A DNA stretch of 64,000 nucleotides from Clostridia bacterium (GTDB lineage: Bacteria; Bacillota; Clostridia; CAKSNL01; HGM11501), in assembly GCA_017411325.1 (NCBI GenBank), contig JAFQQJ010000040.1:133659-197658 (forward strand), given 5' to 3'. Under the pieces are notes generated by a model, which saw nothing but the letters and a program-made list of their open reading frames with translations, had not been told where the DNA came from and ran no database searches. How positions within the stretch are numbered: the first letter of the stretch is position 1; each line of letters starts with the position of its first letter. Of the stretch, positions 1,981-40,332 are shown in pieces. The position numbers and the translations under genes are program-made.

Positions 1981-2790
1981 ATGGATAAATTCACATTTTT
2001 TATAGATATTGACGGGACGCTGGCAAATGATGAAAAAACTGTGCCCGAAGAAAACATAAAAGCCATTGCCGAAGCAAGAGAAAAAGGACATATGGTTTTC
2101 ATAAACACAGGCCGCTCTGTAAGCCGCCTTCCTTTCCATCTTTCCTTTGATACCGGTGTTGACGGAGTTATAACAAGTCTCGGTGCCACAATTTTTCACG
2201 GGCGTGATGTGATTTTTGAAAATTACACATCCGTTTCCGAAACCGTTGAAATTTATGAAATATGCAAAAAGTGCGGCTGGCATTTTTATTTTGATACGGA
2301 ATTTCAGAAGTATGAGCTTAATGTTCCCGAAAACAACACTCACGTCCCCATAAGCGAACAAAATACGCAGAAAAGCAGGCTTCTTGCATTTTCCGAAAAG
2401 GATTTCATTATTACCGATGAAGCTTATATAAGAGAAAAAAACATCCGCTTATCCAAGATGATTGCCTTCCCCGAAGGCGATGATATGACGGAATTTATGC
2501 GCCTTTCAAAGTATTTTACAATACATAAGACTCTTGGCTATTTTGATTTATCCCTTAAAAGCAACGGAAAGGATAAGGCAATAGATTGGGTATGCAAGCA
2601 TTTTAACCTCCCCCTGTCAAAAACCGTAGCTATGGGCGACTCGGAAAATGATATCCCTATGCTTAACTTTGCCGCCTTTTCCGCAGTTCCGAAAAACGCC
2701 ACCGAGGGTGCAAAAAAGAATGCAAAATACATCTCACCTCTTACCAACAACGAAGCCTTCGTTGCCGGGGTTATAAGAAGGTTTATATAA
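1981..2790 (+). CDS. Cof-type HAD-IIB family phosphatase
   Basis: ORF 1954..2790. The ATG at 1981 follows AGAGGTG. HAD motif I is FIDIDGTL and motif IV is MGDSENDIPM. Confidence 0.8.
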   Translation: MDKFTFFIDIDGTLANDEKTVPEENIKAIAEAREKGHMVFINTGRSVSRLPFHLSFDTGVDGVITSLGATIFHGRDVIFENYTSVSETVEIYEICKKCGWHFYFDTEFQKYELNVPENNTHVPISEQNTQKSRLLAFSEKDFIITDEAYIREKNIRLSKMIAFPEGDDMTEFMRLSKYFTIHKTLGYFDLSLKSNGKDKAIDWVCKHFNLPLSKTVAMGDSENDIPMLNFAAFSAVPKNATEGAKKNAKYISPLTNNEAFVAGVIRRFI

Positions 2791-2826
2791 AAGATACTGC
2801 GGAAGCATTGCTTCCGCAGTATCTTT
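2791..2826. terminator. bidirectional intrinsic terminator
   Basis: The sequence aagatactgcggaagc-attg-cttccgcagtatctttt lies between convergent genes. Confidence 0.75.
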
Positions 2827-2828
2827 TA

Positions 2829-3809
2829 TTATTCAAACAAGTTCCAGTTAAAAACTTCGCACTGGCCATACATATTTTCTCCGATTGCCAAAACGCTTCC
2901 ATCTTCCTTTATACCAATTGCATGACGTGATCCTGCCTCAATCGCTACAATATCCTTCCACTTTTCCACTTCGCACTGACCATCATATCCATAGGCTCCG
3001 CCTTCCTTAAATTCAGTTGCCACAACAGTTCCGTCACTTTTAAGTCCAAGTGTATAATTATAGCCTGCCGAAATTGCCACAATGTCTTTCCATTTTTCCA
3101 CGTTGCACTGCCCGTTGACATTGTTCCCTGTTGCTACAACCGTCCCGTCACTTTTAAGCCCTACCGTATGATTACTGCCGACAGAAATCCCTGCAATATC
3201 CTCCCATTCATCAACATCGCACCGTCCGCTTCCGTTGCTGCCCGTTGCAACAACCTTTCCGTTGCTTTTTAATCCTACTGTATGTATCATCCCTGCCCCG
3301 ATATCAACAATATCCGTCCAGCTTTCCACATCACACTGTCCTTCATTATTATATCCCGTTGCCATCACTCCACCGTTTTCATCCAATCCCACGGTGTAAT
3401 CGCTGCCGGCAGAAACCACCTTGATATTTTTCCAGTCTCCCACATCGCTGCAACCATCATAATTTGATCCTGTTGCAACAACACTTCCGTCATCCCTGAG
3501 CCCGACAATATGAGCCGTTCCTGCCGAAACTGCAGTAATATCATCCCATAATGACACAGAAGTTATCTGCACCTGATAATCGCCAAGTGCGTAAGCTCCT
3601 GCCATATCCACCTTTCCTTCCGGATTTACCATTACGGTTTGTATCCCTCCTGCCGAAATGCTTTTGTTTATTTCGCGGGAAAGTGTATATTTTTCATTGA
3701 AATCTCTCTGCTTTTGCTTGTATAAATTCACTTTAACAGCAATACAGCCCACCGATATCACAAATGCAGCAATGCAAAGTATCATAACGATTCTTTTATA
3801 TGCTTTCAT
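2829..3809 (-). CDS. membrane-anchored RCC1-like repeat (beta-propeller) protein
   Basis: It has an N-terminal TM helix (IVMILCIAAFVISVGCIAV). This is followed by about 7 tandem repeats of roughly 38 aa with the pattern HTVGLKSDGTVVATGxNxxGQCxVxxWxDIVxISAG. Confidence 0.7.
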   Translation of the reverse strand: MKAYKRIVMILCIAAFVISVGCIAVKVNLYKQKQRDFNEKYTLSREINKSISAGGIQTVMVNPEGKVDMAGAYALGDYQVQITSVSLWDDITAVSAGTAHIVGLRDDGSVVATGSNYDGCSDVGDWKNIKVVSAGSDYTVGLDENGGVMATGYNNEGQCDVESWTDIVDIGAGMIHTVGLKSNGKVVATGSNGSGRCDVDEWEDIAGISVGSNHTVGLKSDGTVVATGNNVNGQCNVEKWKDIVAISAGYNYTLGLKSDGTVVATEFKEGGAYGYDGQCEVEKWKDIVAIEAGSRHAIGIKEDGSVLAIGENMYGQCEVFNWNLFE

Positions 3810-5199: not shown

Positions 5200-5789
5200 T
5201 TACCCAGAATATCCTTTCCGACGCACTCTGAAACTATATCAAGCACTTCTTTTTCAAGCCTTTCGGCATCTCCGTCATTTACTATCACAAAGTCGCACTT
5301 TTCCTTTATAGGTGCAAGATTCCGTGCATTGATTCTTAATCTTGCATCATCTATGCTTAAATTATCTCTCTTCATAATTCTTGCAAGGCGAAGTTCATCC
5401 TCCGCATCCACGAAAATAACCTTGTCGCAAAGCTTATCCTCACCTGCTTCAAAAAGGAGCGGTGCATCAAGAACTATGAGTCCGCTTGATGCTTCTATTT
5501 CTTCTTTGGTAAGCTTAATAATATATTTATGCGTAATTTTATTCAATATTAAAAGCTTTTCCTTATCTGAAAAAACTATTCTTCCAAGGGCTTTTCTGTC
5601 AAGCACACCATCTTTTATGACACCGGGAAAGGATTCATCAATTTCTGAAAGAGCAATTCCGCCCTCTTTTGTAATTTCACGGCTCAATTTATCCGCATCT
5701 ATTATCTTTGCACCCTTTTTTTGAAGTATTGCACTTATCAGGCTTTTTCCCGCACCGGTTCCTCCCGTTAATCCAAGTACATATCTCAT
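5196..5789 (-). CDS. coaE: dephospho-CoA kinase
   Basis: 197 aa with P-loop GLTGGTGAGKS at the N-terminus and CoaE-like length and layout. There are 4-nt overlaps with the neighbouring genes on both sides. Confidence 0.85.
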   Translation of the reverse strand: MRYVLGLTGGTGAGKSLISAILQKKGAKIIDADKLSREITKEGGIALSEIDESFPGVIKDGVLDRKALGRIVFSDKEKLLILNKITHKYIIKLTKEEIEASSGLIVLDAPLLFEAGEDKLCDKVIFVDAEDELRLARIMKRDNLSIDDARLRINARNLAPIKEKCDFVIVNDGDAERLEKEVLDIVSECVGKDILGK

Positions 5790-8383
5790 TTTGCATCATA
5801 CCAGGAAAAGCCGCGTCCCGCATCCGCCAGAAGCGGAACGGCAATTTTTGCGGCGTTTTCCATTTCCCTTACTAAAATTTCCTCAGCCTTGTCTGCTTCT
5901 TTCAGGGGCGCTGATACTATAAGTTCATCGTGCACCTGAAGTATAAGACGGCAGTTTTCCGTTTCCTCAGAAAGTGCCTTACTTACCCTTACCATAGCGA
6001 TTTTTATTATATCCGCCGCTGTTCCCTGAACGGGAGTGTTCATTGCCGCACGCTCACCGAAGGAGCGGGTGTTGAAGTTGCCCGACAAAATTTCGGGAAT
6101 ATAACGGCGACGACCAAACATTGTTTTGACAATTCCGTCCACCTTTGCCTCTGCCACAGTATTATCCATAAAGGCTTTTATCTTGGGATATGTCTCAAAA
6201 TACGCCTCCATATAGCGCTTTGCCTCGGCACGGGTAACGTGAATATCCTTGGCAAGACCAAATTCACTTATTCCGTAAACTATACCGAAGTTTACCGCCT
6301 TTGCACGGCGACGCATTGAGTCTGTCACCTCATCTTCCGGAACGCCGAAAATTTCCGAGGCACATCTTTTATGAACATCTGTTCCGTCAAGAAAGGCCTT
6401 CTGCATTGCCTCGTCCCCCGAAAGGTGTGAAAGCACACGAAGCTCAATCTGTGAATAGTCCGCATCAATTAAAATTTCGCCTTCGCTGTCTGCGGTAAAC
6501 ATTTTTCTGAGGCGTCTTCCCTCTTCCATTCTTACCGGAATGTTTTGCAAATTAGGCTCAGTCGAGCTTATTCTGCCCGTTGCGGTTACAGTCTGATTAA
6601 AGGTTGAATGAATTTTTCCGTCCTCCCCGATTAAAGGAAGCATACCGTCAACATAGGTGCCCTTTAATTTTGCCATTTGACGGTATTCAAGAATTGATTC
6701 AACAATGGGGAATTTCCCCGCAAGCTCCGATAAAACCTCCGCATCTGTGGAATAGCCGGTTTTTGTCTTTTTCACAACCGGAAGACTTAAATGCTCAAAA
6801 AGTACTGTTCCAAGCTGCTTTGGAGAGTTTATGTTAAACTCCTCGCCTGCCATAAAGTAAATGCTGTCTTCCAATGATTTTATGCGAAGGTCAAGCTCTT
6901 TTCCGTAATCTTCCAGCTTTGCCGCATCCACAGAAAAGCCCGTAATCTCCATATCTGCAAGAACTCTTATTAAGGGAAGCTCCACCTCATAAAGCAAAAA
7001 TTCCTGCTCGTTTTCCTTTATTTTGGCAAGGATGGTACTTCTTAAATCCTTTACCGACAAAGCTGCATCGGCAGCTATTTTAAGCTTGTTTTCGTTTTCT
7101 TTGACGGAAGGTGCTTTCTTATCTTCAAAATCCTCCGTAAGACGGGAAAGATATGCCATTGAAAGGCGTGAAAGCTTGTAGTCAGATGCTGTGGGATCCA
7201 AGATATATGCCCCTATTTCTGCATCAAAGGCATAGTTTTTATAGCCTATATACAGCTTATTTAATATTACAATATCTTCCTTTATGCCGTGGGAAACTTT
7301 TATAATATTTTCGTCCTCGAAAATATCTTTGAAGTTACGAAGGGATAATTCGGTATAATATACCTCATCATCCTTCAGGAAAGCGATTGCCTGAGGCATA
7401 CCTTCCTTTTTGAAGAGATAATAATAAAACTCCGTAATACCGCAAAGGACACCAATAAGTTCTTCAGTATCGGTTAATTCCTTTGCCAAAACCACTTCTC
7501 CCAAAGGTGCCGCCTCCACCTTGCAGCGCTCAATAAAGCTCTTGAATTCAAGGCGTGTAAAAAGGCTTAAAAGAGCCTCGTTGTTATATTCTGAAAGTGC
7601 GCAGTCATCTATTGTTTCATCAACGGGACTATTGACATCGATTGTAGCAAGCTCCTTGCTTAAGTAAGCCATATCCCTGCCGTCTTTAAGCTTCTGCTTT
7701 GCCGACGGCCCAAGCTTTGCAGTTTCCAAGTTTTCATACACAGCATCAATGCTTTTATATTCCCCTATAAGGGCAAAGGCTGTTTTCTCGCCGATTCCCG
7801 CAACGCCCGGAATGTTGTCAGAGGTATCTCCCATAAGGCCTTTAACATCAATAAACTCCTTCGGGGTAACACCGTACTTTGCATAAACCGCATCTTCATC
7901 GTAAATATCAGTTGTGGTCTGCCCTTTTGATGTTACGGTTAAGTAAACCTTTGTGGTTTTGCTTGCAAGCTGCAAATCGTCCTTATCGCCCGTTACAATG
8001 TCGCACTCGATGCCTGAATCCGCGCATCTTTTTGCCATTGTTCCGATTATGTCATCCGCCTCATAGCCTTCCTTTTCCAGGATGGCTATGTTCATTGCAG
8101 AAAGAACCTCTTTAATTACAGGCATCTGCATAAAAAGCTCCTCCGGCATCCCTTTTCGCTGAGCCTTATATTCCGCATAACGCTTATGGCGGAAGGTGGG
8201 AGCCTTAAGGTCAAAGGCAACGGCGATATAATCGGGATTTATAGCGTCCATATTTTTAAATAAAATATTTAAAAAGCCGTAAACCGCATTGGTATAAAGC
8301 CCCTCGGAATTTGTGAGAAGCTTTATGCCGTAAAAGGCGCGGTTCATTATACTGTTTCCGTCTACTATAAGGAATTTTTTCAT
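5786..8383 (-). CDS. polA: DNA polymerase I
   Basis: 865 aa. It has a 5'-nuclease N-terminus (LIVDGNSIMNRAFYG, GDTSDNIPGVAGIGEKTA). Family-A polymerase motifs are DYSQIELRVLSHLSGD, RRRAKAVNFGIVYG and QVHDELIV. Confidence 0.95.
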   Translation of the reverse strand: MKKFLIVDGNSIMNRAFYGIKLLTNSEGLYTNAVYGFLNILFKNMDAINPDYIAVAFDLKAPTFRHKRYAEYKAQRKGMPEELFMQMPVIKEVLSAMNIAILEKEGYEADDIIGTMAKRCADSGIECDIVTGDKDDLQLASKTTKVYLTVTSKGQTTTDIYDEDAVYAKYGVTPKEFIDVKGLMGDTSDNIPGVAGIGEKTAFALIGEYKSIDAVYENLETAKLGPSAKQKLKDGRDMAYLSKELATIDVNSPVDETIDDCALSEYNNEALLSLFTRLEFKSFIERCKVEAAPLGEVVLAKELTDTEELIGVLCGITEFYYYLFKKEGMPQAIAFLKDDEVYYTELSLRNFKDIFEDENIIKVSHGIKEDIVILNKLYIGYKNYAFDAEIGAYILDPTASDYKLSRLSMAYLSRLTEDFEDKKAPSVKENENKLKIAADAALSVKDLRSTILAKIKENEQEFLLYEVELPLIRVLADMEITGFSVDAAKLEDYGKELDLRIKSLEDSIYFMAGEEFNINSPKQLGTVLFEHLSLPVVKKTKTGYSTDAEVLSELAGKFPIVESILEYRQMAKLKGTYVDGMLPLIGEDGKIHSTFNQTVTATGRISSTEPNLQNIPVRMEEGRRLRKMFTADSEGEILIDADYSQIELRVLSHLSGDEAMQKAFLDGTDVHKRCASEIFGVPEDEVTDSMRRRAKAVNFGIVYGISEFGLAKDIHVTRAEAKRYMEAYFETYPKIKAFMDNTVAEAKVDGIVKTMFGRRRYIPEILSGNFNTRSFGERAAMNTPVQGTAADIIKIAMVRVSKALSEETENCRLILQVHDELIVSAPLKEADKAEEILVREMENAAKIAVPLLADAGRGFSWYDAK

Positions 8384-13094: not shown

Positions 13095-14328
13095 AAAGAC
13101 CTATATTTTCCCATTCCTTTTTGGGAACCAGCTTTCCGCCTGTAAGCCATACAATATGTGTGGCGTTCCCGTAATTTTCTATATCCGTAAACATCTTCCC
13201 CACACCGCCGAGGGCAACAGATGAAGATGGCTCCGCTTTTATCCTTGAAGTTTTATATAAAAGCCTTGTCAGGCTAAGGCTGTGCTCATCATCTATTGTA
13301 AAGCAACCGTCAAGCATACCTTTCATAACATTATACGCAAGACGCGAAGGGCTTGAGCACGCCAGACCATCCGCAACAGTTCCTTTTCCGAGACCGATAT
13401 CGTATACGCTGACATCGCTCCGTCCCTTTGCCATAGCAAGTGCCATACAGGGCATCTGGGTAGGCTCACCGAAGCAGCAATATACATTGTCGCCAAAGGC
13501 TTTTTTAAGACCGAAGGTTATTCCCCCGGGGCCTCCGCCAACTCCGCAGGGCAGATACACAATTAAAGGATGAGTGCTGTCCACCTTGATTTTCTTCTCC
13601 TTAAGCTGTTTTATAAGGGTTTTATACGCCGTGGAATATCCCAAAAACAAGTCCTTTGAATCCTCATCGTCAATAAAGAAGGTTTCGTCGTCCTTTAAGG
13701 CTTCACTTCTTGCCGTTTTCAACGCGGAGGTGTAATCGCCCTTAAATTCCACAACATTAACCCCGGCTCTCATAAGCTTATCCTTTTTCCACTTTTTTGC
13801 TTCCTCGGACATATAAACCGTAACATCAAAGCCAAGCTTTTTACCGGAAAGCCCGATGCTCATACCGAGATTTCCCGTTGAGCCGACGGATATTTTATAA
13901 TGAGAATAAAATTCCCTGTAATAGAAGCTGTCTATCACGTTATAATTGTCGGTTGTCTTAAGCATACCGTTTTTCATAGCAAGCTCTTCGGCATACTTAA
14001 AAACCGTATATATGCCGCCACGCGCCTTTAATGACCCGCACACCGCCAAGGAATCGTCACGCTTTACATATAAATCGCCCGGTATTTTAACATTTTCTGC
14101 TTTTTCAAGTTCCGCCTTTGTATCTTTTACAAGCTGAAGAGAGGAGTCAATTATTCCCTTTGTTTTCTTTGTTTCGGGAAAAGCAGCACGAACATAGGCT
14201 GAGAAGCGGTTAAGTCTCTCCCACGCATCGTCAATATCCTCCTGGGTAAGAATTTCTTCACCGCTTATTTTGTTGCAGTTAAAAAGCACTTCTTTCGCTT
14301 TCCTCATATCGGATATTATTTTTTCCAT
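13087..14328 (-). CDS. dsdA: D-serine ammonia-lyase (D-serine dehydratase)
   Basis: 413 aa and collinear with E. coli DsdA from memory. Shared blocks are the PLP-lysine block GSLKARGGIY, SVGSTGNLGMSIG, FFIDDEDSKDLFLGYS and YLPCGVGGGPGGITFGLK. Confidence 0.9.
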   Translation of the reverse strand: MEKIISDMRKAKEVLFNCNKISGEEILTQEDIDDAWERLNRFSAYVRAAFPETKKTKGIIDSSLQLVKDTKAELEKAENVKIPGDLYVKRDDSLAVCGSLKARGGIYTVFKYAEELAMKNGMLKTTDNYNVIDSFYYREFYSHYKISVGSTGNLGMSIGLSGKKLGFDVTVYMSEEAKKWKKDKLMRAGVNVVEFKGDYTSALKTARSEALKDDETFFIDDEDSKDLFLGYSTAYKTLIKQLKEKKIKVDSTHPLIVYLPCGVGGGPGGITFGLKKAFGDNVYCCFGEPTQMPCMALAMAKGRSDVSVYDIGLGKGTVADGLACSSPSRLAYNVMKGMLDGCFTIDDEHSLSLTRLLYKTSRIKAEPSSSVALGGVGKMFTDIENYGNATHIVWLTGGKLVPKKEWENIGLFE

Positions 14329-14388
14329 GTAGTTTTCCCCTTTCTAAAATGCCGGACGAACCAGACCATATGCCGAGCTTTTGTAATT

Positions 14389-14443
14389 ATTGCGACACAT
14401 AAGGTTTAGATGCAAACCTTTTTGGTGTCAAGTTCGTGTCAAG
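14389..14443. repeat. 55-bp direct repeat, copy a (upstream of dsdA)
   Basis: The sequence is attgcgacacataaggtttagatgcaaacctttttggtgtcaagttcgtgtcaag. By hand alignment it matches 17678-17732 at 46 of 55 positions. Confidence 0.85.
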
Positions 14444-14538
14444 TTAATACCCAAAAAATTGTTAACCCATTACAAAAATCTTTTGCTTTATCAAGCATTA
14501 TACTTTCTGCCATCTTATCACATCTATTAATTTATTTC

Positions 14539-14730
14539 AGCTAAATTTTGAACTAAAGTTCAAAACTAAATTATCTCATTTCATTCAATAGCTAAATAAC
14601 TCCTTTGGAGTAGCTAAATTAAATTCGCTTTTGTAGCTGACCGCAAGGGCAATTTAGCTACGAAGTAATTTAGCTGAACTTGTTCAATTTAGCTCGCGGT
14701 AGCGAATTTAGCTGCGTTGCCTTGCAACGC
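14539..14730. repeat. word/mini-hairpin array 1 (AGCTAAAT x3, then AATTTAGCT x4)
   Basis: AGCTAAAT occurs at 14539, 14590 and 14612. Its reverse complement AATTTAGCT occurs at 14651, 14667, 14686 and 14705. Different small stem-loops separate the words: ttttgaac-taaa-gttcaaaa, actcc-ttt-ggagt, ac-gaa-gt, gaa-cttg-ttc, cgc-ggta-gcg and gcgttgc-ctt-gcaacgc. Confidence 0.8.
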
Positions 14731-14989
14731 TCGTGTCAAGCCTGGTGAACAGTGAATAATAAGAACCATCACGAAATATAACGAAATCAAAGATTTCTAT
14801 ATTTCGGAGAACCTTGTTATGCTAAAGCATAATATAGACCTACTATTTTTCCCTTAATTTTTCACTGGATTTTCCTTAACCACTTTTCCTTAGAACCCGC
14901 GAGAATACTGAATTTTCTCGCATCCGATAGCATATGTAAATATCAAAATCGGCAAACTATTCTTTTAAATTGTATGGAATTGACACGAG
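14730..14989. repeat. about 250-bp structured repeat element E, copy 1 (MITE-like, 10-bp terminal inverted repeat)
   Basis: It is bounded by ctcgtgtcaa (14730-14739) and ttgacacgag (14980-14989). The interior matches 16769-17072. It contains the nested hairpin cgaaatata-ac-gaaatc-aaa-gatttc-tatatttcg, the hairpins ttatgc/gcataa and gcgagaa/ttctcgc, AGAACC x3 and TTTTCCTTA x3. Confidence 0.75.
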
Positions 14990-14995
14990 TAAAAG

Positions 14996-15739
14996 TTAAT
15001 AATCATAGTGTCCAAACACGCCAATTATATCATAATATTCAAAATGTCGGTCAAAGTCTAAATATAATTCTTCGCCATTCTCCAACTCTGCTACTCCCAA
15101 GTATCCACCGCTTTTAGTAAAATATAATTCATCTGAAAATGTTGGATGTTGTATTCTGTTTAATAATTCTGAATCTGCATAAACAAAGTCCTCATTTTTC
15201 ATTTGTTCTTTAATTTTCTCATCTAAAAAATTACCGCTTGCTACTTCGGATAACCCATTCGTTTCCTGCATATTCATAGCATTATTGTTATAGACCGAAA
15301 TAGTTTCATATAGTCTGACTTTGTTTATTTTCTCCATATACTTTTTGTCGTTTTCAGCAGACCAGATACACATTTCTTCTTTTTTATTTACAAGCTGTAT
15401 TGACTCTATGTTTTCAAATTCATCTTCAATTGCAAAAGAGTATCCGCCATTTCTATTATTAAAACCAAATAGCAAATTTTGCTTTATTCCCAAATAAAGA
15501 ACATTGTCTTTTATTTCATATGTATATCCAATATATGCTGTTGCACTACTTGAAGTATTGCCTATTATATGTACCGTTTCATCAGTAACATAAACTGTTT
15601 CAACACATAAAACATTTGGGCTTTCACACATATCAAACCCCAAAATTTTCCAACCATATCTTGCTGTTAAAAAAATAGCTAACTGCAAAATTAACAGAAT
15701 TGATAAAATAATTACAACTATCTTAAATATTTTCTTCAT
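14996..15739 (-). CDS. hypothetical membrane-anchored protein (islet cassette P1)
   Basis: ORF 14996..15769. The ATG at 15739 (MKKIFKIVVIILSILLILQLAIF) follows GAAAGGAG. It has one N-terminal TM helix, I see no recognisable domain, and the coding sequence is AT-rich. Confidence 0.6.
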   Translation of the reverse strand: MKKIFKIVVIILSILLILQLAIFLTARYGWKILGFDMCESPNVLCVETVYVTDETVHIIGNTSSSATAYIGYTYEIKDNVLYLGIKQNLLFGFNNRNGGYSFAIEDEFENIESIQLVNKKEEMCIWSAENDKKYMEKINKVRLYETISVYNNNAMNMQETNGLSEVASGNFLDEKIKEQMKNEDFVYADSELLNRIQHPTFSDELYFTKSGGYLGVAELENGEELYLDFDRHFEYYDIIGVFGHYDY

Positions 15740-15767
15740 TTGCAATACTCCTTTCGCAATATTCGAC

Positions 15768-15794
15768 ATTGCGAGGCATAAGGTTTAGATGCAA
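15768..15794. repeat. partial copy (left 27 bp) of the 55-bp repeat
   Basis: The sequence is attgcgaggcataaggtttagatgcaa. It overlaps the last codons and stop of cassette P2. Confidence 0.75.
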
Positions 15795-16165
15795 TTAGTT
15801 TTTCGCTTTATAATTAAATGCTTAATTACAAATTCAATCATCATAATTACTAAATAACTAATGCCATAAACAACTGTTGTAATAAAATAAGTTAATTCTC
15901 CTTCCAAATCATACCATATCTGTTTATCGACCAAACTATGATAATATAATTGTCCGTTTATACACATTCCCATCGAAGAAGCTACCAGAATGAGCAAACA
16001 ACCTATCAAAAATTCTTTTCGACTATTGCTTAAAAACAAATTCAAAATTGATACAATAAAAGTCCATATCCAAATTGTTTTCATAAAATCTGTTCCTGCA
16101 CTTCCAAAAACCACACATGGAACTAATATTGAAATGTTTATAACACTTAATAATACTTTTCTCAT
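15785..16165 (-). CDS. hypothetical small polytopic membrane protein (islet cassette P2)
   Basis: ORF 15785..16195. The ATG at 16165 (MRKVLLSVINISILV) follows GAAAGGAG. It has about 4 hydrophobic helices and no recognisable domain. Confidence 0.55.
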   Translation of the reverse strand: MRKVLLSVINISILVPCVVFGSAGTDFMKTIWIWTFIVSILNLFLSNSRKEFLIGCLLILVASSMGMCINGQLYYHSLVDKQIWYDLEGELTYFITTVVYGISYLVIMMIEFVIKHLIIKRKTNCI

Positions 16166-16223
16166 ATCAGCACTCCTTTCGACAAATTTCTCCATATAGT
16201 TCGTGTCAATTCAGGACTAAAAA

Positions 16224-16712
16224 TTATCTATCTGTCAGATAACTCTTTATTTTTTCAGAAGAAACTTTCACAAAATTATTTTTTAATTCTTCATTAGTAA
16301 AATGTATTTCTAAAAATTCTATATCCCTTATTTCTTCTCCATTTCGATAAACAGTTATGGCTCCGCTGCCGGTTGTGCCTCTCCCGGCCGGATATGTACG
16401 AATATATAAAAATTCCTTGTTAAACTGTAAATTCCTTCCGTCCTGACACCATAAATATGTTTGTTTCTCACTATATATACCGTTACAAATAACAACCGTA
16501 TATTCGTTCCCATCATTAAATGCAATATCTATCAAGGGATAATCCAATTGCCCAATTGCTTCATCAATAGGAGTATCATCAACTATCGCATTTTTTTCTA
16601 ATCTAAATTCATATTCTTTTTTTGCATTCTCAAATCCCGTTTGATAAAAAATACCGCTTGCCACAACCGTACAAAACACACATAAAACTATTAAGATTAT
16701 AAATCTTTTCAT
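16224..16712 (-). CDS. hypothetical secreted or anchored protein (islet cassette P3)
   Basis: ORF 16224..16733. The ATG at 16712 (MKRFIILIVLCVFCTVVASG) follows GAAAGGAAAG. It has a signal-like N-terminus and no recognisable domain. Confidence 0.55.
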   Translation of the reverse strand: MKRFIILIVLCVFCTVVASGIFYQTGFENAKKEYEFRLEKNAIVDDTPIDEAIGQLDYPLIDIAFNDGNEYTVVICNGIYSEKQTYLWCQDGRNLQFNKEFLYIRTYPAGRGTTGSGAITVYRNGEEIRDIEFLEIHFTNEELKNNFVKVSSEKIKSYLTDR

Positions 16713-16751
16713 TTCGCACTTTCCTTTCGCCAAAATTCGAGAATCTTATTA

Positions 16752-17072
16752 TTCGTGTCAAATCAGGAGAACAGTGAATAATAAGAACCATCACGAAATA
16801 TAACGAAATCAAAGATTTCTATATTTCGGAGAACCTTGTTACTCCGTAATAAGAACCATCACCCAACACGAAATCAAAGATTTCTATATTTCGGAGAATC
16901 TTGTTATGCTAAAGCATAATATAGACCTACTATTTTTCCCTGATTTTTTCAACTATTTTTCCTTTAACACTTTTCTTAGAACCCTCGAGAATACTGAATT
17001 TTCTCGCATCCGATAGTGTATGTAAATATCAAAATCGGCAAACTAATGTATTAAATTTTATAGACTTGACAC
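16752..17072. repeat. structured repeat element E, copy 2 (with internal tandem duplication of about 60-68 bp)
   Basis: The first 73 nt from gaacagtgaataataagaacc are identical to copy 1, and the rest is similar by eye. The block taataagaaccatcac...cggagaaycttgtta occurs twice, at 16779-16846 and 16847 to about 16906. The element is bounded by ttcgtgtcaa (16752) and ttgacac (17066). Confidence 0.75.
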
Positions 17073-17090
17073 ACTGCATACTTTATCTTA

Positions 17091-17576
17091 TTACCATCCG
17101 CGCTCTCTTCTATCTTCCCAATACTGTTCCGCAAATTCTACTGCGCCTTTCATCGCACTTTCTCTATTTTTCTTTTCCATTATATCATCGACATACATAC
17201 CAAATCCTACCGAGAGATATGCCTTGCCTTTTATACATTCACAAAAAAATTCTATATCTTCCATAGAAATATCGATTCCAATTGAAAGCTTTCTCCTAAA
17301 TTCACTTGCTGGATTTAACTTTATATATATAGCTTCTAACACCTCATCATCGTAACCCTTATTTACAAGATATTCTATTTCACTTTTTTTTGCTCTTTTG
17401 AATACAAACCAAAACTTATGCTCTAACTCATATTCATTGCCACAAAAGTTAGAATTTACCAACTCCCAACCAAGCGCCCCTTCTTTATTTAAAATTCGTT
17501 GTAATTTCTCCATATCAGGTTCTTCATCTTTTGTGTTGTTTACTTCTACATATTTCGTTTTATATTCCCAATACAT
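17091..17576 (-). CDS. hypothetical cytoplasmic protein with a DUF4177-like N-terminus (islet cassette P4)
   Basis: 161 aa. The N-terminus MYWEYKTKYVE...LNKEGALGWELV resembles DUF4177 as I remember it. The C-terminal half is unassigned. Confidence 0.5.
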   Translation of the reverse strand: MYWEYKTKYVEVNNTKDEEPDMEKLQRILNKEGALGWELVNSNFCGNEYELEHKFWFVFKRAKKSEIEYLVNKGYDDEVLEAIYIKLNPASEFRRKLSIGIDISMEDIEFFCECIKGKAYLSVGFGMYVDDIMEKKNRESAMKGAVEFAEQYWEDRRERGW

Positions 17577-17677
17577 TATACAAAATCTCCTTAATAAATA
17601 TTTTTATAAGCATCTCTCGATATATCTTTCTTTTAAAAGTTCATCCTTGAATATTAGACTTTTAATTTTCGATACAA

Positions 17678-17732
17678 ATTGCGAAGCATAAGGTTTAGAT
17701 GCAACTTATTTTAGTAGCAAGTTCGTGTCAAG
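17678..17732. repeat. 55-bp direct repeat, copy c (upstream of cassette P4)
   Basis: The sequence is attgcgaagcataaggtttagatgcaacttattttagtagcaagttcgtgtcaag. It matches 14389-14443 at 46 of 55 positions and is in the same orientation. Confidence 0.85.
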
Positions 17733-17800
17733 ACTGGGCCAAAAATTCACCTTATTTTATTCTATCACAAAATACCTGCCTTTTCAATAGAAACCGCATC

Positions 17801-17835
17801 AAAAAATTCCCGGAATGCAACATTCCTGGAATTTT
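17801..17835 (-). terminator. intrinsic terminator of the MFS gene
   Basis: On the minus strand, the sequence aaaaattccaggaatg-ttg-cattccgggaatttttt lies directly after the stop codon. Confidence 0.6.
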
Positions 17836-19065
17836 TCACGCCTTCTTTTTTTCTTTCATAAAGCTTATAAATACAGGGATTGCCATAAGCGGGAAAAGCA
17901 TACCGATAAGCATTCCGCATCGCATTCCGAGCTGCTCTGCTTCAAGCCCCATTTTTGATGCAAAATCTACAAGTGTCTCATTTCCCATTACCTTATCCGT
18001 TACTATTCCAAGCACCTGAGGAACAACAGATGCGCCCAGGTCTCCGCCCGATGCCATCATAGCATACATAAACACTCCGCCATGGGGTATTCTTTCAGAT
18101 GCCGAAATCAGATTGCCCGGCCAGAGCATTGATGTACAGAAGCCTGTGAGTGCGCAGGCTATAAGTGTCAGTATCGGAAACGGCGAAATTGCCGCCGTAA
18201 AGTAGCAAAACGTTGCACCTATGGCGCACATAAGTAAAACCTTGTTAATATTCTTCCCTATTTTAGCATACAGGCTTCGTCCCAGGCCCAGCATAAGGGA
18301 AAAGAGCGCCATACCGAAAATGTCCCCGAAAACCTTGGGGATTTTTGTAACCTCTTCAAGATAGCCGGAGCACCACTGCGCCATAGTACATTCTGCCGCA
18401 CCGCCTAAAAAGATTGCAAAGACCGAGGTTAAAAGGGCCTTGTTTTTAAGCTGGCTCAAAGCGCCTGTTACTTTTTCCGGAGTTTCCATTTCGGGGATTT
18501 TTGCACCCGCAAATAAAACTGCAGCAAATACAGGAACAACCGTTAAAATAAGGGATAATATGTACCAGTTTTCAGCTCCGAAAAGAACCAGAAACGCCGT
18601 TGCGAAAATTACAACTCCCACCACGCCCCAGGCGTAGATTGAATGGAGCTTACTCATTTCGCGGTCGGGGTCATCTGCAGGAATTGCCGCAATTACAGGG
18701 CTTATCAAAACCTCGCAAAGCCCGCCCGATGCCGAAAACACAATAGTTCCCAAAACTATGCCGTAAAAGGCGGTTTCAGGGCTTATAATGGGCCAGATTG
18801 AATAAATTAAAAGACCGATTATCGTAATTACCGGCGTAAGCTTTACCGTTTTTGCAATATTAAATTTATGGGAGAAAAAGGAAAATATCAGGTCAATTGT
18901 AAGCTGAGTGCAAAAATTAATAAGTACCAAAAGACCAAGAAGCGAAAAGGATATTCCGTAAAGCTCCCTGAATGTAAGAAAAAGTATGGGCGAAATATTT
19001 CCTACCACAGACATTGAAATATTTGTTCCATAGCAACCAAGTTTAACTCTTTTATTGTTGTCCAT
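17836..19065 (-). CDS. MFS transporter
   Basis: ORF 17836..19113. The ATG at 19065 (MDNNKRVKLGCYG) follows GAGGTGA. It has about 12 hydrophobic helices in two halves. Confidence 0.75.
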   Translation of the reverse strand: MDNNKRVKLGCYGTNISMSVVGNISPILFLTFRELYGISFSLLGLLVLINFCTQLTIDLIFSFFSHKFNIAKTVKLTPVITIIGLLIYSIWPIISPETAFYGIVLGTIVFSASGGLCEVLISPVIAAIPADDPDREMSKLHSIYAWGVVGVVIFATAFLVLFGAENWYILSLILTVVPVFAAVLFAGAKIPEMETPEKVTGALSQLKNKALLTSVFAIFLGGAAECTMAQWCSGYLEEVTKIPKVFGDIFGMALFSLMLGLGRSLYAKIGKNINKVLLMCAIGATFCYFTAAISPFPILTLIACALTGFCTSMLWPGNLISASERIPHGGVFMYAMMASGGDLGASVVPQVLGIVTDKVMGNETLVDFASKMGLEAEQLGMRCGMLIGMLFPLMAIPVFISFMKEKKKA

Positions 19066-19155: not shown

Positions 19156-19225
19156 CTTCAGCCATAGCCTACTAATTTACATCTTCCGGAAGGAGCAAGC
19201 CCCTTCCCTACAAACTATATATGGT

Positions 19226-19493
19226 ATAAATCCACACGCCGCAGGCGTATTTCATATTGCGAAGCAATATTTCACGCCCGAAGGGTATTTCACAATAGAT
19301 GCAGGTTATTTTAGTGATATTCCAACTTCGTTAGAGTGATATTTTTACAGAGTAAAAGTGATATTATATTTGCCATTAAACTGTGCGAAGCACAATATCA
19401 CTCGGTGTAATCCGAATATAACTGTGCAGCAATATAAACTTGCCAAAGGCAAATATAACTGAAAAAAGACATCCGAAGATGTCTTTTTTCTGG
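19226..19493. repeat. 268-bp word/mini-hairpin array unit R, copy 1
   Basis: It differs from 19608-19875 at 4 positions by hand alignment. Words are TATTTCAC x3, GTGATAT x3, ATATCAC x1 and ATATAA x3, separated by at least 9 small stem-loops. It ends in the terminator at 19462-19489. Confidence 0.9.
19462..19489. terminator. bidirectional intrinsic terminator hairpin (end of unit R copy 1)
   Basis: The sequence is aaaaaa-gacatc-cgaa-gatgtc-tttttt. Confidence 0.6.
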
Positions 19494-19607
19494 CTTTCAC
19501 GTACATAATAGATGCAGTATATTTTTAGTGAAATATCAACTTCGTTGATGTGAAATAATTTCTGTCGAAATTGTGAAATAGAAACCTAACGGTTTCTGTG
19601 AAATGAA
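19494..19607. repeat. array module S (GTGAAATA x4) between the two R copies
   Basis: GTGAAAT(A/G) occurs at 19528, 19550, 19573 and 19598. The copies are separated by atcaac-ttc-gttgat, aatttc-tgtc-gaaatt and gaaacc-taac-ggtttc. The leader cataatagatgcagtatattttta is paralogous to 19290-19313. Confidence 0.85.
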
Positions 19608-19875
19608 ATAAATCCACACGCCACAGGCGTATTTCATATTGCGAAGCAATATTTCACGCCCGAAGGGTATTTCACAATAGATGCAGGTTATTTTAGTGAT
19701 ATTCCAACTTCGTTGGAGTGATATTTTCACAGAGTAAAAGTGATATTATATTTGCCATTAAACTGTGCGAAGCACAATATCACTCGGTGTAATCCGAATA
19801 TAACTGCGCAGCAATATAAACTTGCCAAAGGCAAATATAACTGAAAAAAGACATCCGAAGATGTCTTTTTTCTGG
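19608..19875. repeat. 268-bp word/mini-hairpin array unit R, copy 2 (abuts tRNA-Leu)
   Basis: See copy 1. The terminator at 19844-19871 lies 1 nt from the tRNA CCA end. Confidence 0.9.
19844..19871. terminator. bidirectional intrinsic terminator, terminates tRNA-Leu on the minus strand
   Basis: The sequence aaaaaa-gacatc-cgaa-gatgtc-tttttt lies immediately 3' of the tRNA. Confidence 0.7.
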
Positions 19876-19961
19876 TGCCCGAGACCGGAATCGAACCGGT
19901 ACGACTTTTAACGGTCGCAGGATTTTAAGTCCTGTGCGTCTGCCAGTTCCGCCACTCGGGC
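19873..19961 (-). tRNA. tRNA-Leu, anticodon UAA, CCA encoded
   Basis: The minus-strand read is GCCCGAG-TG-GCGGAACTGGCAGACGC-A-CAGGA-CTTAAAA-TCCTG-long variable arm-ACCGG-TTCGATT-CCGGT-CTCGGGC-A-CCA. It folds as a class II cloverleaf with the anticodon loop CU-UAA-AA. Confidence 0.9.
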
Positions 19962-19975
19962 TTACCACGAAAAAT

Positions 19976-20004
19976 AGAATACCATAAATTAAAGCATTTG
20001 TCAA
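19976..20004 (-). promoter_or_regulatory. sigma-A-type promoter for tRNA-Leu
   Basis: On the minus strand there is TTGACA, a 17-nt spacer, then TGgTATTCT (extended -10). It ends about 15 nt before the tRNA 5' end. Confidence 0.55.
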
Positions 20005-20054
20005 GAGTTATTTGCTTTTTTCGGGGCTTTTTTCTGAAAATATCAGATAAAAAA

Positions 20055-20092
20055 ACAAATCCGATTGCAAAGCAATCGGATTTGTAATAAGC
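20055..20092 (-). terminator. intrinsic terminator of the large ABC locus
   Basis: On the minus strand, acaaatccgattgc-ttt-gcaatcggatttgt is followed by a T7 run, just after the stop at 20096. Confidence 0.7.
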
Positions 20093-20095
20093 TTT

Positions 20096-38496: not shown

Positions 38497-40332
38497 TTAC
38501 GCTTTTTTCTTTGTAACAGCCTTTATTACAAAAAGTGTTCCGATCATAAGAACGATACCTATGGGAAGTGCGATGTATGCGCTCTTTACAAGACCTGCTA
38601 TTATGTAGCATACGAAAGACACTGCAGCAACAGTTAAAGCATAAGGAAGCTGAGTTGTAACGTGGTTTATGTGGTTTGACTGGCTTCCTGCCGATGCCAT
38701 AATCGTCGTATCTGAAATGGGAGAGCAGTGGTCACCGCAAACAGCACCTGCCATACAAGCAGAGATAGCGATGATTTCAAGGTATGCATATTCAGCACCA
38801 ACTCCGCTGAAGATAGCGAGAACGATGGGAATAAGGATACCGAATGTTCCCCAGGAAGTACCTGTAGAGAAGGAAAGACCAACTGCGATTAAGAATACGA
38901 TTGCGGGAAGAAGAATTACTACTGCACCTGCATAGTTTCTTACGAATTCAGCAATGAATACCTTTGCACCGAGAGAATCGGTCATTGTCTTAAGCGTCCA
39001 GGCACAGGCAAGAATCATAATAGCGGGAACCATTGCCTTGAAGCCCTCGGGAAGAGATTCCATACACTGCTTGAAGTTAAGAACTCTTCTTAACAGGAAG
39101 TAGATAACGCTGAAGATAAGTCCGCCGAAGGAACCGTATACAAGACCAACGGAAGCATCTGCATTGGAGAACGCAACCACGAAATTGCGGAAGCCTTCAG
39201 CATCTGCTGTAAAGAAGCCACCGGAATAGATAAGTCCGAATATGCAGCCTACGATAAGTACAAGTACGGGAGCAACAAGATCCCATACGCTGCCCTTCTT
39301 ATTTTCGTCAGCATCTTCAAGAGCCTTGAACATTTCAGCATCTGCAGAAGAGAAAAGGTCACCGTTTTCAGCAGCTTCTTCGTGCTTCTTCATGGGGCCG
39401 AAGTCAAACTTCATAAGCGCAATTGTAATCATCATAATGATGGTAAGGATTGCATAGAAGTTCCAGGGAATAGCCTTTATAAAGAGTGCAAATCCTTCTC
39501 CTTCGGGAGCAAAGCCTGCAACTGCAGCTGCCCAGGAGGATACGGGTGCAATGATACATACGGGAGCCGCCGTAGCGTCGATTACATAAGCAAGCTTAGC
39601 TCTTGAAAGCTTGAACTTGTCGGATACGGGACGCATAACGGAACCTACTGTAAGACAGTTAAAGTAGTCGTCAACAAAGATAAGTACGCCGAGTGCAATT
39701 GTTGCAAGCTGCGCGCCAACCTTGGACTTGATGTGAGTGGATGCCCATCTTCCGAATGCAGCGCTTCCGCCGGACTTATTCATAAGAGATACTATAGCAC
39801 CGAGCACGATAAGGAAAATTATAATACCGATGTTATAGGAGTCTGCCACGGATGAAATGAATCCGTCCTGGAAAAGATGGTCAAGTGTTCCTGTGAAATT
39901 GAAGTTTGCATAAAGGAGCGCACCCGATGCAATACCGATGAAAAGAGAAGAATAAACTTCCTTTGTGATGAGTGCAAGTGCAATTGCGATGATGGGAGGA
40001 AGAAGAGAAAGCCATGTTGCATAAACAGGAATTTCTTCTTTAGCCACAGCAAGTGCCTTGCCAAGGTTTTCATCGAAGTTTTCGTCGCTTGTTACATTGT
40101 CGGAATATCCGTCAATATAACCCCACGCGTCGAAAGCCTCTTCTTCGGCAGCTTCTTCTGCTACCTCTACGACAGCTTCTTCTGCCGGAATTTCGGCTTC
40201 TGCAATTATTTCTGCATCTTCGCCGATCAATGCTTCTTCAGGTTCTGCCATAACTGTCATAAACATAGATGCCATAACAGTAAATATGAGCATAAGGCTG
40301 AAGAAAATCTTGAGATTTTTTGCCTTTTTCAT
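38497..40332 (-). CDS. NhaC-family (Na+/H+ antiporter superfamily) transporter, candidate lysine transporter, with an acidic N-terminal extension
   Basis: ORF 38497..40377. The ATG at 40332 (MKKAKNLKIFFSL) follows GGAGG. The polytopic core begins at LSLLPPIIAIALALITKEV. Residues 30-100 or so are E/A/D-rich. The gene is preceded by a lysine riboswitch. Confidence 0.75.
   Translation of the reverse strand: MKKAKNLKIFFSLMLIFTVMASMFMTVMAEPEEALIGEDAEIIAEAEIPAEEAVVEVAEEAAEEEAFDAWGYIDGYSDNVTSDENFDENLGKALAVAKEEIPVYATWLSLLPPIIAIALALITKEVYSSLFIGIASGALLYANFNFTGTLDHLFQDGFISSVADSYNIGIIIFLIVLGAIVSLMNKSGGSAAFGRWASTHIKSKVGAQLATIALGVLIFVDDYFNCLTVGSVMRPVSDKFKLSRAKLAYVIDATAAPVCIIAPVSSWAAAVAGFAPEGEGFALFIKAIPWNFYAILTIIMMITIALMKFDFGPMKKHEEAAENGDLFSSADAEMFKALEDADENKKGSVWDLVAPVLVLIVGCIFGLIYSGGFFTADAEGFRNFVVAFSNADASVGLVYGSFGGLIFSVIYFLLRRVLNFKQCMESLPEGFKAMVPAIMILACAWTLKTMTDSLGAKVFIAEFVRNYAGAVVILLPAIVFLIAVGLSFSTGTSWGTFGILIPIVLAIFSGVGAEYAYLEIIAISACMAGAVCGDHCSPISDTTIMASAGSQSNHINHVTTQLPYALTVAAVSFVCYIIAGLVKSAYIALPIGIVLMIGTLFVIKAVTKKKA

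Follow-up and report, generated by a model that had tools for sequence, protein, structure and literature searches.

Inverted word blocks beside a tRNA-Leu gene of a Clostridia bacterium are opposed Gut-1 (RF01706) arrays of a conserved composite in which a long-range helix covaries

In a 64,000-nt stretch of DNA from a Clostridia bacterium (referred to here, at its full length, as the window), the word GTGAAAT occurs on the + strand at 19528, 19550, 19573 and 19598, and is followed by a block of its reverse complement. What is this flip, and are the words selected to match one another? A sequence-only reading had counted three exact complement copies after the four words and proposed that the two blocks pair word by word, giving a stack of junctions flanked by local hairpins. 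Two of the complement copies are indeed exact (19651–19657 and 19669–19675), but the third (19631–19637) is the one-base variant TATTTCAT.

Both words are enriched. GTGAAAT is found 29 times in the window against an expectation of 12.9 ± 3.2, a count reached by 0 of 100 shuffles, and 8 of the 29 copies lie inside 19269–19675. GTGATAT is found 23 times against 6.5 expected, with 8 copies inside 19314–19783. The region 19221–19875 resolves into seven Gut-1 arrays of alternating orientation, built on three word types (GTGAAAT, GTGATAT and GTTATAT), and is the single locus of the element in the window. Within an array, short hairpins of variable sequence and nearly perfect Watson-Crick pairing follow one another, with an invariant 7-nt word between them. 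The features are as follows.

19221–19493, no strand assigned: module copy 1, 273 nt, comprising units 1–3 and a terminator; a direct duplication with 19603–19875 (98% identity).
19224–19295, − strand: unit 1, Gut-1 array (55.1 bits); (G/A)TGAAAT plus hairpin three times on the − strand, hairpin plus TATTTCA(C/T) on the + strand.
19291–19312, + strand: leader CACAATAGATGCAGGTTATTTT, 5′ of the GTGATAT arm; further copies at 19504–19525 (86%) and 19673–19694.
19302–19369, + strand: unit 2, GTGATAT plus hairpin array with words at 19314, 19336 and 19358; weak Gut-1 match (24.8 bits).
19364–19377, + strand: centre of the GTGATAT-type composite, TTATATTTGCCATT; pairs with 19445–19458 and corresponds to the 5′ strand of helix P1.
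19390–19461, − strand: unit 3, degenerate arm (32.2 bits); on the + strand hairpin plus ATATCAC, ATATAAC, ATATAAA and ATATAAC; contains the local hairpin ttgcc-aaa-ggcaa and the 3′ arm GGCAAATATAA (19445–19458).
19461–19490, no strand assigned: terminator-like hairpin with A-run and T-run flanks, GAAAAAAGACATC-cgaa-GATGTCTTTTTTC, 13-bp stem; duplicated copy of the tRNA terminator.
19496–19523, + strand: promoter-like site TTCACG-16-TATATT, a consensus match only, absent as a conserved feature in homologues; the start would be at about the first GTGAAAT.
19526–19609, + strand: unit 4, long sense arm and first word block, GTGAAAT plus hairpin, with the four words given above (47.1 bits).
19603–19615, + strand: centre GAAATAAATCC; in homologues it pairs with trailing GGATTTATTTC (helix P1).
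19606–19677, − strand: unit 5, short arm and second word block (55.7 bits); on the + strand hairpins with C-GNA-G loops, each followed by TATTTCA(C).
19694–19768, + strand: unit 6, GTGATAT array, copy of unit 2 (26.3 bits).
19772–19843, − strand: unit 7, degenerate arm, copy of unit 3 (35.6 bits); its 3′ arm 19827–19840 pairs with 19746–19759.
19843–19872, no strand assigned: terminator hairpin abutting the CCA end of tRNA-Leu; called on the − strand.
19873–19961, − strand: tRNA-Leu(UAA), with a promoter-like site at 20004–19976.

The flip is the junction of two Gut-1 (RF01706) arrays in opposite orientation. The Rfam covariance model has a gathering score of 50 bits, and two window units exceed it: 19606–19677 (−) with 55.7 bits and 19224–19295 (−) with 55.1 bits. 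The first word block itself, 19526–19609 (+), scores slightly under that threshold, at 47.1 bits (E = 6e-8), and the four word-variant units (GTGATAT, GTTATAT) score 24.8 to 35.6 bits. The three variable hairpins split by UGAAAU words are present, with compensatory pairing kept, and related loci contain 26 matches at or above the gathering score in 18 loci. Gut-1 has been in Rfam since 2010 as a single 77-nt motif from the “human gut only”, without function, context or partner (Weinberg et al., 2010; PMC2864571), and our search of a literature library returned nothing beyond that paper.

The earlier reading also held that the same logic recurs with GTGATAT and ATATCAC. The recurrence is seen, but it is partly trivial, as it partly derives from the duplication of the 273-nt module. 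The duplication likewise provides a second copy of a 14-nt pair that is 93% complementary (19364–19377 with 19445–19458, and 19746–19759 with 19827–19840). The leader CACAATAGATGCAGGTTATTTT is species-specific; among the fetched loci it occurs on same-strain contigs only.

As an architecture, the complement word blocks are real and conserved. The arrangement of a long sense arm followed by a centre and a short antisense arm recurs in more than 30 gut Clostridia assemblies, often in multiple copies, and we collected 31 non-redundant composites with the same grammar from other genomes. They form a pseudo-twofold element of about 150–250 nt in gut Oscillospirales and Christensenellales. The arms are nearly matched in their number of words and are separated by about 27 nt without a terminator, and a symmetric hairpin flanked by an A-run and a T-run closes the composite. 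In GTGATAT-type composites the sense block is perfect and the other arm is degenerate on its own strand. The words CGAGATT and ATGATGC were met as further word families.

Besides the local hairpins, one long-range helix, joining the centre and the trailing arm, is under selection. This helix, P1, pairs a partial sense word and a variable segment X in the centre with X′ and a degenerate antisense word in the trailing arm. A local hairpin, hp7, uses a second copy of X, and the two are mutually exclusive. In homologues P1 is 97.5% paired, with seven pairs changed on both sides, and hp7 is 92% paired, all of its pairs (6 of 6) being compensatory; for either helix, 0 of 500 shuffles reached the covariation score or the percentage paired. 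Read on the long sense arm's strand, P1 contains a U-G wobble. The proposal that tatatttgcc pairs with ggcaaatata in competition with the local hairpin ttgcc-aaa-ggcaa is borne out here, as this is the window's version of P1 and hp7, with TATATTCGCC/GGCGAATATA and TTTATTCGC/GCGAATAAA as the homologous pairs to the pairing of centre TTATATTTGCCATT. For the GTGAAAT composite, the trailing GGATTTATTTC that would pair with GAAATAAATCC is absent from the window.

The composite lies preferentially directly behind the intrinsic terminator of a tRNA gene. In 19 of 19 cases the array closest to a tRNA lay downstream of that gene and shared its strand, and the neighbouring tRNAs have at least 17 different anticodons. 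The junction tRNA-CCA-G-AAAAAA looks cDNA-like; we rejected tRNA-primed retro-insertion because an orthologous tRNA-Leu site without arrays (L248) has the same junction and, at the equivalent place, a terminator of its own. We also rejected an att remnant and integrase arm-type sites, with no integrase nearby and both word orientations on one side of the tRNA. The symmetric A-run and T-run of the terminator at 19843–19872 suggest that it works in both directions. A terminator scan puts the 19461–19490 hairpin on the − strand; because its T-run is symmetric, it probably ends + strand transcripts as well. Relative to upstream protein genes the arrays showed no orientation bias (50 co-directional, 37 divergent). 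Sense arrays were found between structural genes of a phage in L299, immediately behind stop codons in L393 and L448, and ahead of terminators in L005, L118 and L411. When viral contigs were scanned, true hairpin arrays made up about 11 of 120 cases for GTGAAAT and 2 loci of 120 for GTGATAT, most pattern matches being unrelated repeats.

The reading that we prefer, and to which we give about an even chance, is a dispersed REP/BIME-like structured element that would act as RNA, its single-stranded words serving as fixed recognition sites. The element would act in read-through, 3′-UTR or intergenic transcripts, or in transcripts of its own that end at a terminator. Its hairpins may provide stable support or may block exonucleases and read-through, and on this scaffold the words would be presented as multivalent sites to a factor acting in trans (an RNase or an RNA-binding protein). 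A 3′ domain, closed by the long-range helix, would be formed by the second, inverted arm. Complementarity of the word blocks would then be a consequence of the inverted arrangement and not a selected feature, permitting an alternative junction-stack fold; as the GTGAAAT composite of the window has lost its long-range partner, this alternative fold is the in-silico optimum there. That the element works at the RNA level, on the sense strand, is indicated by the arrays in transcribed contexts, the degenerate opposite arm and the closing symmetric hairpin. That the words are fixed sites is indicated by Akkermansia, which has the same word set in purely direct arrays without complement blocks, and by the partnerless majority of arrays: in a regular-expression count of hairpin-validated arrays, 63 were without an inverted partner of recognisable words and 33 had one, so that about two thirds stand alone.

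Several observations count against this reading. No promoter was found at a conserved position upstream of the first word among the homologues, and locus L032 shows none at all. The stems contain almost no G-U pairs, and their C-GNA-G or GNRA loops are on the strand opposite to Rfam's. No candidate binding protein or mobilising enzyme was identified, and clustering of the flank proteins gave no conserved protein-coding neighbour, apart from a PF05635 four-helix-bundle gene in 5 loci. The multi-copy dispersal, detailed below and also among the grounds for the RNA reading, fits a selfish repeat at the DNA level equally well.

Such a repeat is an unlikely alternative. It would be MITE- or REPIN-like, with hairpins forming in ssDNA, inverted words acting as binding or cleavage sites of a transposase (e.g., of the HUH/RAYT type) and effects on RNA being incidental. 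It would account for copies that are dispersed and break assemblies. Two copies in L032 are 95.5% identical over 247 nt, the JAZTZP01 assembly has copies on at least 6 contigs that bracket ordinary operons, about 30 of roughly 113 arrays (counted by reading) are at true contig ends, and the window strain's own short-read contigs break at 19214. The missing conserved promoter, the pseudo-twofold architecture and the inverted terminal hairpins of the L053 and JAZTZP01 subfamily would fit as well. The variable stems point the same way, with 623 Watson-Crick pairs against 17 G-T or A-C pairs (about 97% Watson-Crick). The mismatches, 6 G-U and 11 A-C in 640 pairs, show no strand bias and are uninformative for strand. 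The loops are dominantly C-GNA-G triloops, otherwise GNRA, on the strand that reads ATTTCAC. C-GNA-G triloops form unusually stable DNA mini-hairpins, for example d(GCGAAGC), a sequence that is present literally at several places in 19250–19810. On the other hand, transposase, RAYT and integrase genes were absent from every 8-kb flank examined, and L053, with flanks gaatac and atataa, has no visible target-site duplication. Hairpin sequences vary within one element, unlike those of REP copies, and the nucleotides flanking consecutive words covary (A..T, G..C, C..G, T..A). A position-specific grammar and compensatory changes are kept across families, which indicates long-term purifying selection and not decay. 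The strand-asymmetric word conservation of the GTGATAT type and the single direct arrays in transcribed contexts also speak against such a repeat.

Pairing of the words themselves, as a selected ladder, we consider distinctly unlikely. On one strand, as RNA or ssDNA, sense words would pair with antisense words and four-way junctions would stack, perhaps as one of two states of a switch, the other being the centre-to-trailing helix. Folding of the window as RNA and as DNA, on both strands, did return the predicted word-word helices: w1:a3 and w2:a2 are contained in the minimum-free-energy structure and the ensemble (z −5.8 to −8.8), and nested word-word pairing is predicted with probabilities of 0.5–1.0 in most homologues. 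The nearly equal word numbers of the arms are consistent with a ladder, as is locus L025, in which the words are altered on both arms together (GATGAAATC with GATTTCATC). The covariation of P1 and hp7 indicates that alternative conformers are under selection. Selection on the rungs was nevertheless not seen: the words vary so little that the rungs contain no compensatory change and cannot be told from shuffles. In P1, moreover, the sense word nearest the centre pairs with the antisense word farthest from it; the helix therefore encloses the other antisense words (a1–a3), excluding the nested ladder in the same conformer. Changes confined to one block, which the sequence-only reading had named as evidence against itself, do occur. 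The complement block of the GTGATAT family drifts (ATATCAC, ATATAAC and ATATAAA in the window; ATACCAC and ATAGAAC in L420) while its sense block stays perfect, and uncompensated word changes are seen in L112, where ATGAAATC faces ATTTCAC, and in L068, where GTGATAT faces ATTTCAC. The partner arrays of L001 and L005 carry unrelated words, and an inverted duplication would give complementarity trivially. The suggestion that words are selected to match each other is not supported either: most arrays are without a complement block and those of Akkermansia are purely direct, and the words are therefore conserved in their own right. What stands of the pairing model is thus the complement blocks, the predicted folds and the competing helix pair, but not selection on word-word pairing.

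These parts can be assembled into a two-state device, which we regard as doubtful. In one state P1 would close a multi-hairpin domain and leave the GUGAAAU words free; in the other hp7 would form and the words would zip into the four-way-junction stack, all hidden. A multivalent binding platform would thereby be turned on and off cooperatively; to this we likewise assign a small chance. As pure speculation, the displayed words might then be read by tRNA anticodon loops.

We also think it improbable that the composite is two independent, converging small RNA genes, with each Gut-1 block functional on its own strand only. Rfam does model Gut-1 as a stand-alone sRNA and both arms score, on opposite strands; for each arm the closing pairs, A-U and U-G, are as expected on its sense strand. 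L005 offers a converging case, in which a single hairpin with T-rich flanks is shared by an array of GTGAAAT and, facing it, one of ATGATGC. However, the short interval between the composite arms holds no terminator, the outer edges leave no room for promoters, the GTGATAT-type arms are degenerate on their own strand and P1 is a same-strand link from the centre to the distal end of the other arm. Very improbable indeed is a multivalent tRNA-binding RNA whose linker GU-GAA-AU would show a Glu codon within a context that can pair with six anticodon-loop bases of tRNA-Glu(UUC) (GUGAAA exactly complements UUUCAC of the loop CUUUCAC in these organisms), with the variants GAU and UAU addressing tRNA-Asp and tRNA-Tyr: GAA is the sole unpaired triplet in the Rfam structure, the word variants differ there and the elements adjoin tRNA genes, but the at least 17 neighbouring tRNA kinds show no preference for Glu, Asp or Tyr, the families CGAGATT and ATGATGC fall outside the scheme, and, with many candidate motifs to choose from, a chance match to a single 7-mer is to be expected.

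Further identities were tried and rejected. A MITE identity fits neither the canonical type of the element, which has no terminal inverted repeats beyond the words, nor L053, as described above. A Type III toxin-antitoxin antitoxin (ToxI-like) was rejected on units that differ in sequence, no conserved downstream ORF, and neighbouring window ORFs without a Pfam toxin match. CRISPR-like arrays do not fit. For Tn7/Mu-like ends or an autonomous parent, no arm pair flanks transposase genes; between the arrays are thiamine, glycoside-hydrolase and pckA operons. The half-site GTGAAATA resembles both parS and the Noc-binding site; such half-sites are never juxtaposed as a palindrome, and we therefore treat the resemblance to ParB/Noc sites as chance. 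By inspection, we found no consistent fit to CRP, cre, Fur or IHF sites, −10/−35 boxes, K-turns, C/D-box motifs or mini-ORFs (GUG AAA UAA).

Taken together, Gut-1 is now seen as an arm of a larger, often multi-copy element with order-level conservation among bacteria, a fixed grammar, two covarying and mutually exclusive helices, a strict polarity behind tRNA genes and a small word repertoire common to several phyla. This makes an abundant element of the gut microbiome testable, with the words as baits for a binding protein or nuclease and the alternative helices open to probing. Should it prove to act as REP/BIME elements do, it would be the first system of this kind to be reported from gut Clostridia.

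Among known systems, riboswitch expression platforms and attenuators share with it one 3′ arm that pairs with either of two copies of an upstream segment, with covariation of both pairings. Here, however, the shared arm is outside the terminator stem, and neither a downstream gene nor a recognisable ligand-binding domain is present. sRNAs of the CsrB/RsmZ type resemble it in repeating a short conserved single-stranded motif on a hairpin scaffold closed by an intrinsic terminator. Their motif is in the hairpin loops, whereas the one described here is in the linkers, and the present element is multi-copy, often paired with an inverted arm and has no identified promoter. REP/BIME/REPIN elements of Proteobacteria likewise combine short hairpin units with a conserved short word beside the stem, and occur, as the present element does in some assemblies, in multiple copies, in alternating or inverted clusters, extragenic at operon ends and near terminators. 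Their word is GTAG, in contrast to GTGAAAT, GTGATAT or GTTATAT, and the REP copies of one genome share the same palindrome, whereas the hairpins here differ within one element; the combination of a common palindrome with GTAG was not found. Neither the clustered flank proteins nor the flanking ORFs, scanned with Pfam, included a RAYT (Y1 transposase) gene. The hosts here are Firmicutes and Verrucomicrobia, and a covarying long-range helix is present. The anatomy is that of Gut-1 itself, with its (G)UGAAAU words between three hairpins and its habitat in gut Clostridia. Beyond the published motif, the element has an inverted two-arm composite, a covarying centre-to-trailing helix with a competing hairpin, a location behind tRNA terminators, dispersal in multiple copies and the word variants GTGATAT and GTTATAT, and it is present in ruminant and other animal guts and in Akkermansia.

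The array region occupies a 759-nt intergenic gap between an MFS transporter gene and a tRNA-Leu(UAA) gene, with the following borders and words:

17836-19065, - strand: MFS transporter gene
19528, 19550, 19573 and 19598, + strand: GTGAAAT words
19631-19637: TATTTCAT, a one-base variant of the complement word
19651-19657 and 19669-19675: reverse complement of GTGAAAT
19873-19961, - strand: tRNA-Leu(UAA) gene

The sequence-only reading had described four GTGAAAT words flipping into three exact complements; the four words and the complement block are there, but the third complement copy is the one-base variant. GTGAAAT occurs 29 times in the window against 12.9 expected, a count reached in 0 of 100 shuffles, and GTGATAT is clustered likewise (23 against 6.5 expected). 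Part of the recurrence noted from the sequence stems from a tandem duplication of recent date, as 19221-19493 is 98% identical to 19603-19875. Three GTGAAAT words within 200 nt at 40999-41195 (+), in or beside an ORF (40696-41253), are probably a coding-sequence coincidence. A lysine riboswitch (RF00168, 112 bits) lies at 40404-40570 (-), upstream of the same-strand ORF 38497-40377.

Both ATTTCAC blocks match Gut-1 (Rfam RF01706), a gut-bacterial motif of variable hairpins separated by 7-nt words, on the - strand with 55.1 and 55.7 bits (gathering score 50 bits). The GTGAAAT block matches on the + strand with 47.1 bits, under the gathering score, and four more units with GTGATAT or GTTATAT words are weaker matches. 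The blocks belong to this known, uncharacterised family. In the Rfam structure the word is divided as GU-GAA-AU, the two outer bases on each side lengthening the flanking stems by A-U and U-G pairs. Altogether, 19221-19875 holds seven arrays of alternating orientation, three copies of a species-specific leader and two terminator hairpins with symmetric A-run/T-run flanks, both placed on the - strand by the scan.

A homologue scan for three spaced GTGAAAT words, using one genome per species, gave at least 120 matches. Among the matches listed, most are from gut Clostridia, Oscillospiraceae, Ruminococcaceae, Acutalibacteraceae and Christensenellaceae assemblies and from Akkermansia; 31 non-redundant cases have a + array with a - array ∼27 nt further on. 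Once oriented, these 31 composites follow one common grammar:

Long arm: four GTGAAAT words and three hairpins
Centre: GAAAT, then a variable segment X
Short arm: three hairpins, ATTTCAC after each
After the short arm: a second X, a loop and X', the complement of X
Degenerate word: ATTTCGTTG or ATTTCAC
Closing hairpin: GC-rich, with A-run/T-run flanks
Far end: very often CTGG, then a tRNA gene on the opposite strand

This shows that two inverted Gut-1 arrays make one conserved, dispersed composite. The window segment 19526-19677 is such a composite save for the missing trailing X', where the leader and a composite of the GTGATAT type stand instead. The latter has its own centre/trailing pair, tatatttgcc/ggcaaatata, whose complementarity, already pointed out from the sequence, is real. 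At one related locus (L095, 1700-2170) the composite arms lie ∼490 nt apart with tandem ttatcgctactttcttctgcg-like units between them, and the centre can thus accept insertions.

Pairing of the centre with the trailing arm over 13–19 bp is found in ∼24 of the 31 composites and involves six or more different X sequences. Across 26 aligned sequences the helix is 97.5% paired, and 7 of its pairs differ on both sides; 0 of 500 shuffles match its covariation score or percentage paired, and it collapses when the partner is slid along. The local hairpin that competes with it, between an X copy and X', shows 92% pairing, and 6 of 6 pairs are compensatory. The two helices exclude each other and have one 3' arm in common, and both are therefore under selection. 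The variable stems contain 429 Watson-Crick, 4 G-T and 8 A-C pairs in the long arm and 194, 2 and 3, respectively, in the short arm, and hence carry no strand signal. The loops are strand-asymmetric, with GAA, GCA, GCAA or GTAA on the strand reading ATTTCAC and the complements on the other. We conclude that the local hairpins and the toggling helix pair are under selection. Within 19250-19810, several hairpins contain literal GCGAAGC or GCGCAGC heptamers (e.g., attGCGAAGCaat, gtGCGAAGCac, ctGCGCAGCaa), heptamers of the kind that forms DNA mini-hairpins of unusual stability.

The sequence-only reading had proposed that the words pair with each other in a stack of junctions. The region it singled out, 19494-19875, does fold far more stably than shuffles, as RNA and DNA and on both strands (z -7.2 to -8.8), and the 157-nt core gives z = -5.8 (+ strand) and -6.0 (- strand). 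With the sense words numbered w1–w4 and the antisense words a1–a3, the minimum-free-energy structure of the core (+ strand) contains w1:a3 and w2:a2 helices, and word-word helices are predicted in homologue ensembles too; for the full-length canonical element, the fold favours the centre-to-trailing helix. Such predicted helices are expected from complementary words and are no evidence of selection. The innermost rung, w4:a1, is 96.6% complementary with 0 compensatory changes, equal to shuffles, and therefore speaks neither for nor against word-word pairing. The covarying helix joins the last sense word to the last antisense word and encloses the remaining antisense words, so that a nested ladder cannot coexist with it. 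As a selected feature the junction stack is unsupported; as a fold it is possible, most of all in the window with its lost long-range partner.

A word and its complement sometimes change together, as at the homologous locus L025 (GATGAAATC opposite GATTTCATC), but often they do not: changes are uncompensated in L112 (ATGAAATC opposite ATTTCAC) and L068 (GTGATAT opposite ATTTCAC). In composites of the GTGATAT type the sense words stay perfect and the opposite arm drifts, its words being:

Window: ATATCAC, ATATAAC, ATATAAA, ATATAAC
L434: ATATCAC twice, ATATAAC twice
L420: ATATCAC, ATACCAC, ATAGAAC
L379: ATATCAC throughout, the only such case among those compared

Some partner arrays bear unrelated words (e.g., ATGATGC, TGATGATATA), and the inverted partner is absent in about two thirds of hairpin-validated arrays (63 without vs. 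33 with, by regular-expression count). In Akkermansia the arrays are direct and lie in tandem 439-nt modules, with GTGAAAT, GTGCAAT, GTTATAT and CGAGATT as their words. These observations indicate that the words are conserved in their own right, independently of any complement, and not selected to match each other as had been suggested. In one Akkermansia sp. assembly (L003; array loci at 2000-3310 and 5745-5811), each of three tandem 439-nt modules combines, on a single strand, a CGAGATT-hairpin array, a GC-rich stretch of ∼200 nt and a GTGAAAT/GTGCAAT-hairpin array, and a separate GTTATAT-hairpin array lies nearby. The word repertoire is thus shared with another phylum.

Where a tRNA gene lies within 130 nt of an array, the nearest array is downstream of it on the same strand (GTGAAAT-hairpin sense) in 19 of 19 cases, covering at least 17 different anticodons, which shows a strict polarity behind tRNA genes. 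The best Rfam Gut-1 matches are the tRNA-proximal arm. In a relative with an 81% identical permease, the orthologous tRNA-Leu(UAA) has CCAG and its own terminator and the arrays are absent. Since this site keeps the terminator, the terminator is the tRNA's own and the arrays are an addition. Sequence downstream of the ABC operon differs in each relative examined. In L248 (5060-5240; 81% identical relative), compared with 19843-20095 of the window, tRNA-Leu(UAA), together with its promoter, faces the other way with respect to the ABC-transporter operon, which points to rearrangement at this tRNA. The stretch 14000-18000 adjoining the arrays has a GC content of 0.32–0.33 vs. ∼0.42 elsewhere and may be an acquired island; its small ORFs 14996-15769, 15785-16195 and 16224-16733 gave no Pfam match, and ORF 17091-17576 gave one weak DUF4177 match.

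Near the arrays we found no transposase, integrase or other conserved neighbour, with one exception: five unrelated loci (L006, 4811-5170; L040; L068; L241; L245) have a divergent four-helix-bundle gene (PF05635/TIGR02436) ∼50 nt from the first word. The family is that of the 23S rRNA intervening-sequence proteins, and DGR Avd proteins are among its relatives. No promoter upstream of the first word keeps its position across the homologues compared; in the window, TTCACG-16-TATATT at 19496-19523 is promoter-like. Other settings of sense arrays are the gaps between phage structural genes and sites directly after stop codons or before terminators.

Several copies of the element occur within one genome. 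At L032 there are two, with 95.5% identity across 247 nt, and only one of them is beside a tRNA. In assembly JAZTZP01 at least six contigs end in arrays, and copies bracket thiamine and glycoside-hydrolase operons. By our reading of the matches listed, ∼30 of ∼113 arrays lie at true contig ends, and the window's own strain has short-read contigs that break off at 19214. In an Acutalibacteraceae assembly and a viral contig (L053, 122-148; L299), the last hairpin of sense arrays is succeeded by GTTTCGGGACCTGCGGTCGGCATTATA; the viral contig has its arrays between phage structural genes, and another contig (L072) ends in the first seven bases, gtttcgg. Beside an array of hairpins followed by TATATCATCA words at L001 (4900-5050), there are two copies of a REP-like unit, GTAGGGGTCG...CGACGACCCGTTAT.

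We infer that the element would act in transcripts as a REP/BIME-like structured module displaying single-stranded words as multivalent recognition sites. On a DNA-level reading it would be a hairpin repeat of ssDNA that an enzyme mobilises; the Watson-Crick-only stems, the C-GNA-G loops and the copy number keep this reading a serious rival. Within the literature searched, we found nothing on Gut-1 beyond the 2010 discovery paper (PMC2864571), which reported 43 sequences as "human gut only" and gave no function. To that published description the present analysis adds the composite architecture, the alternative helices, the tRNA polarity, the dispersal and the word repertoire, all absent from it.
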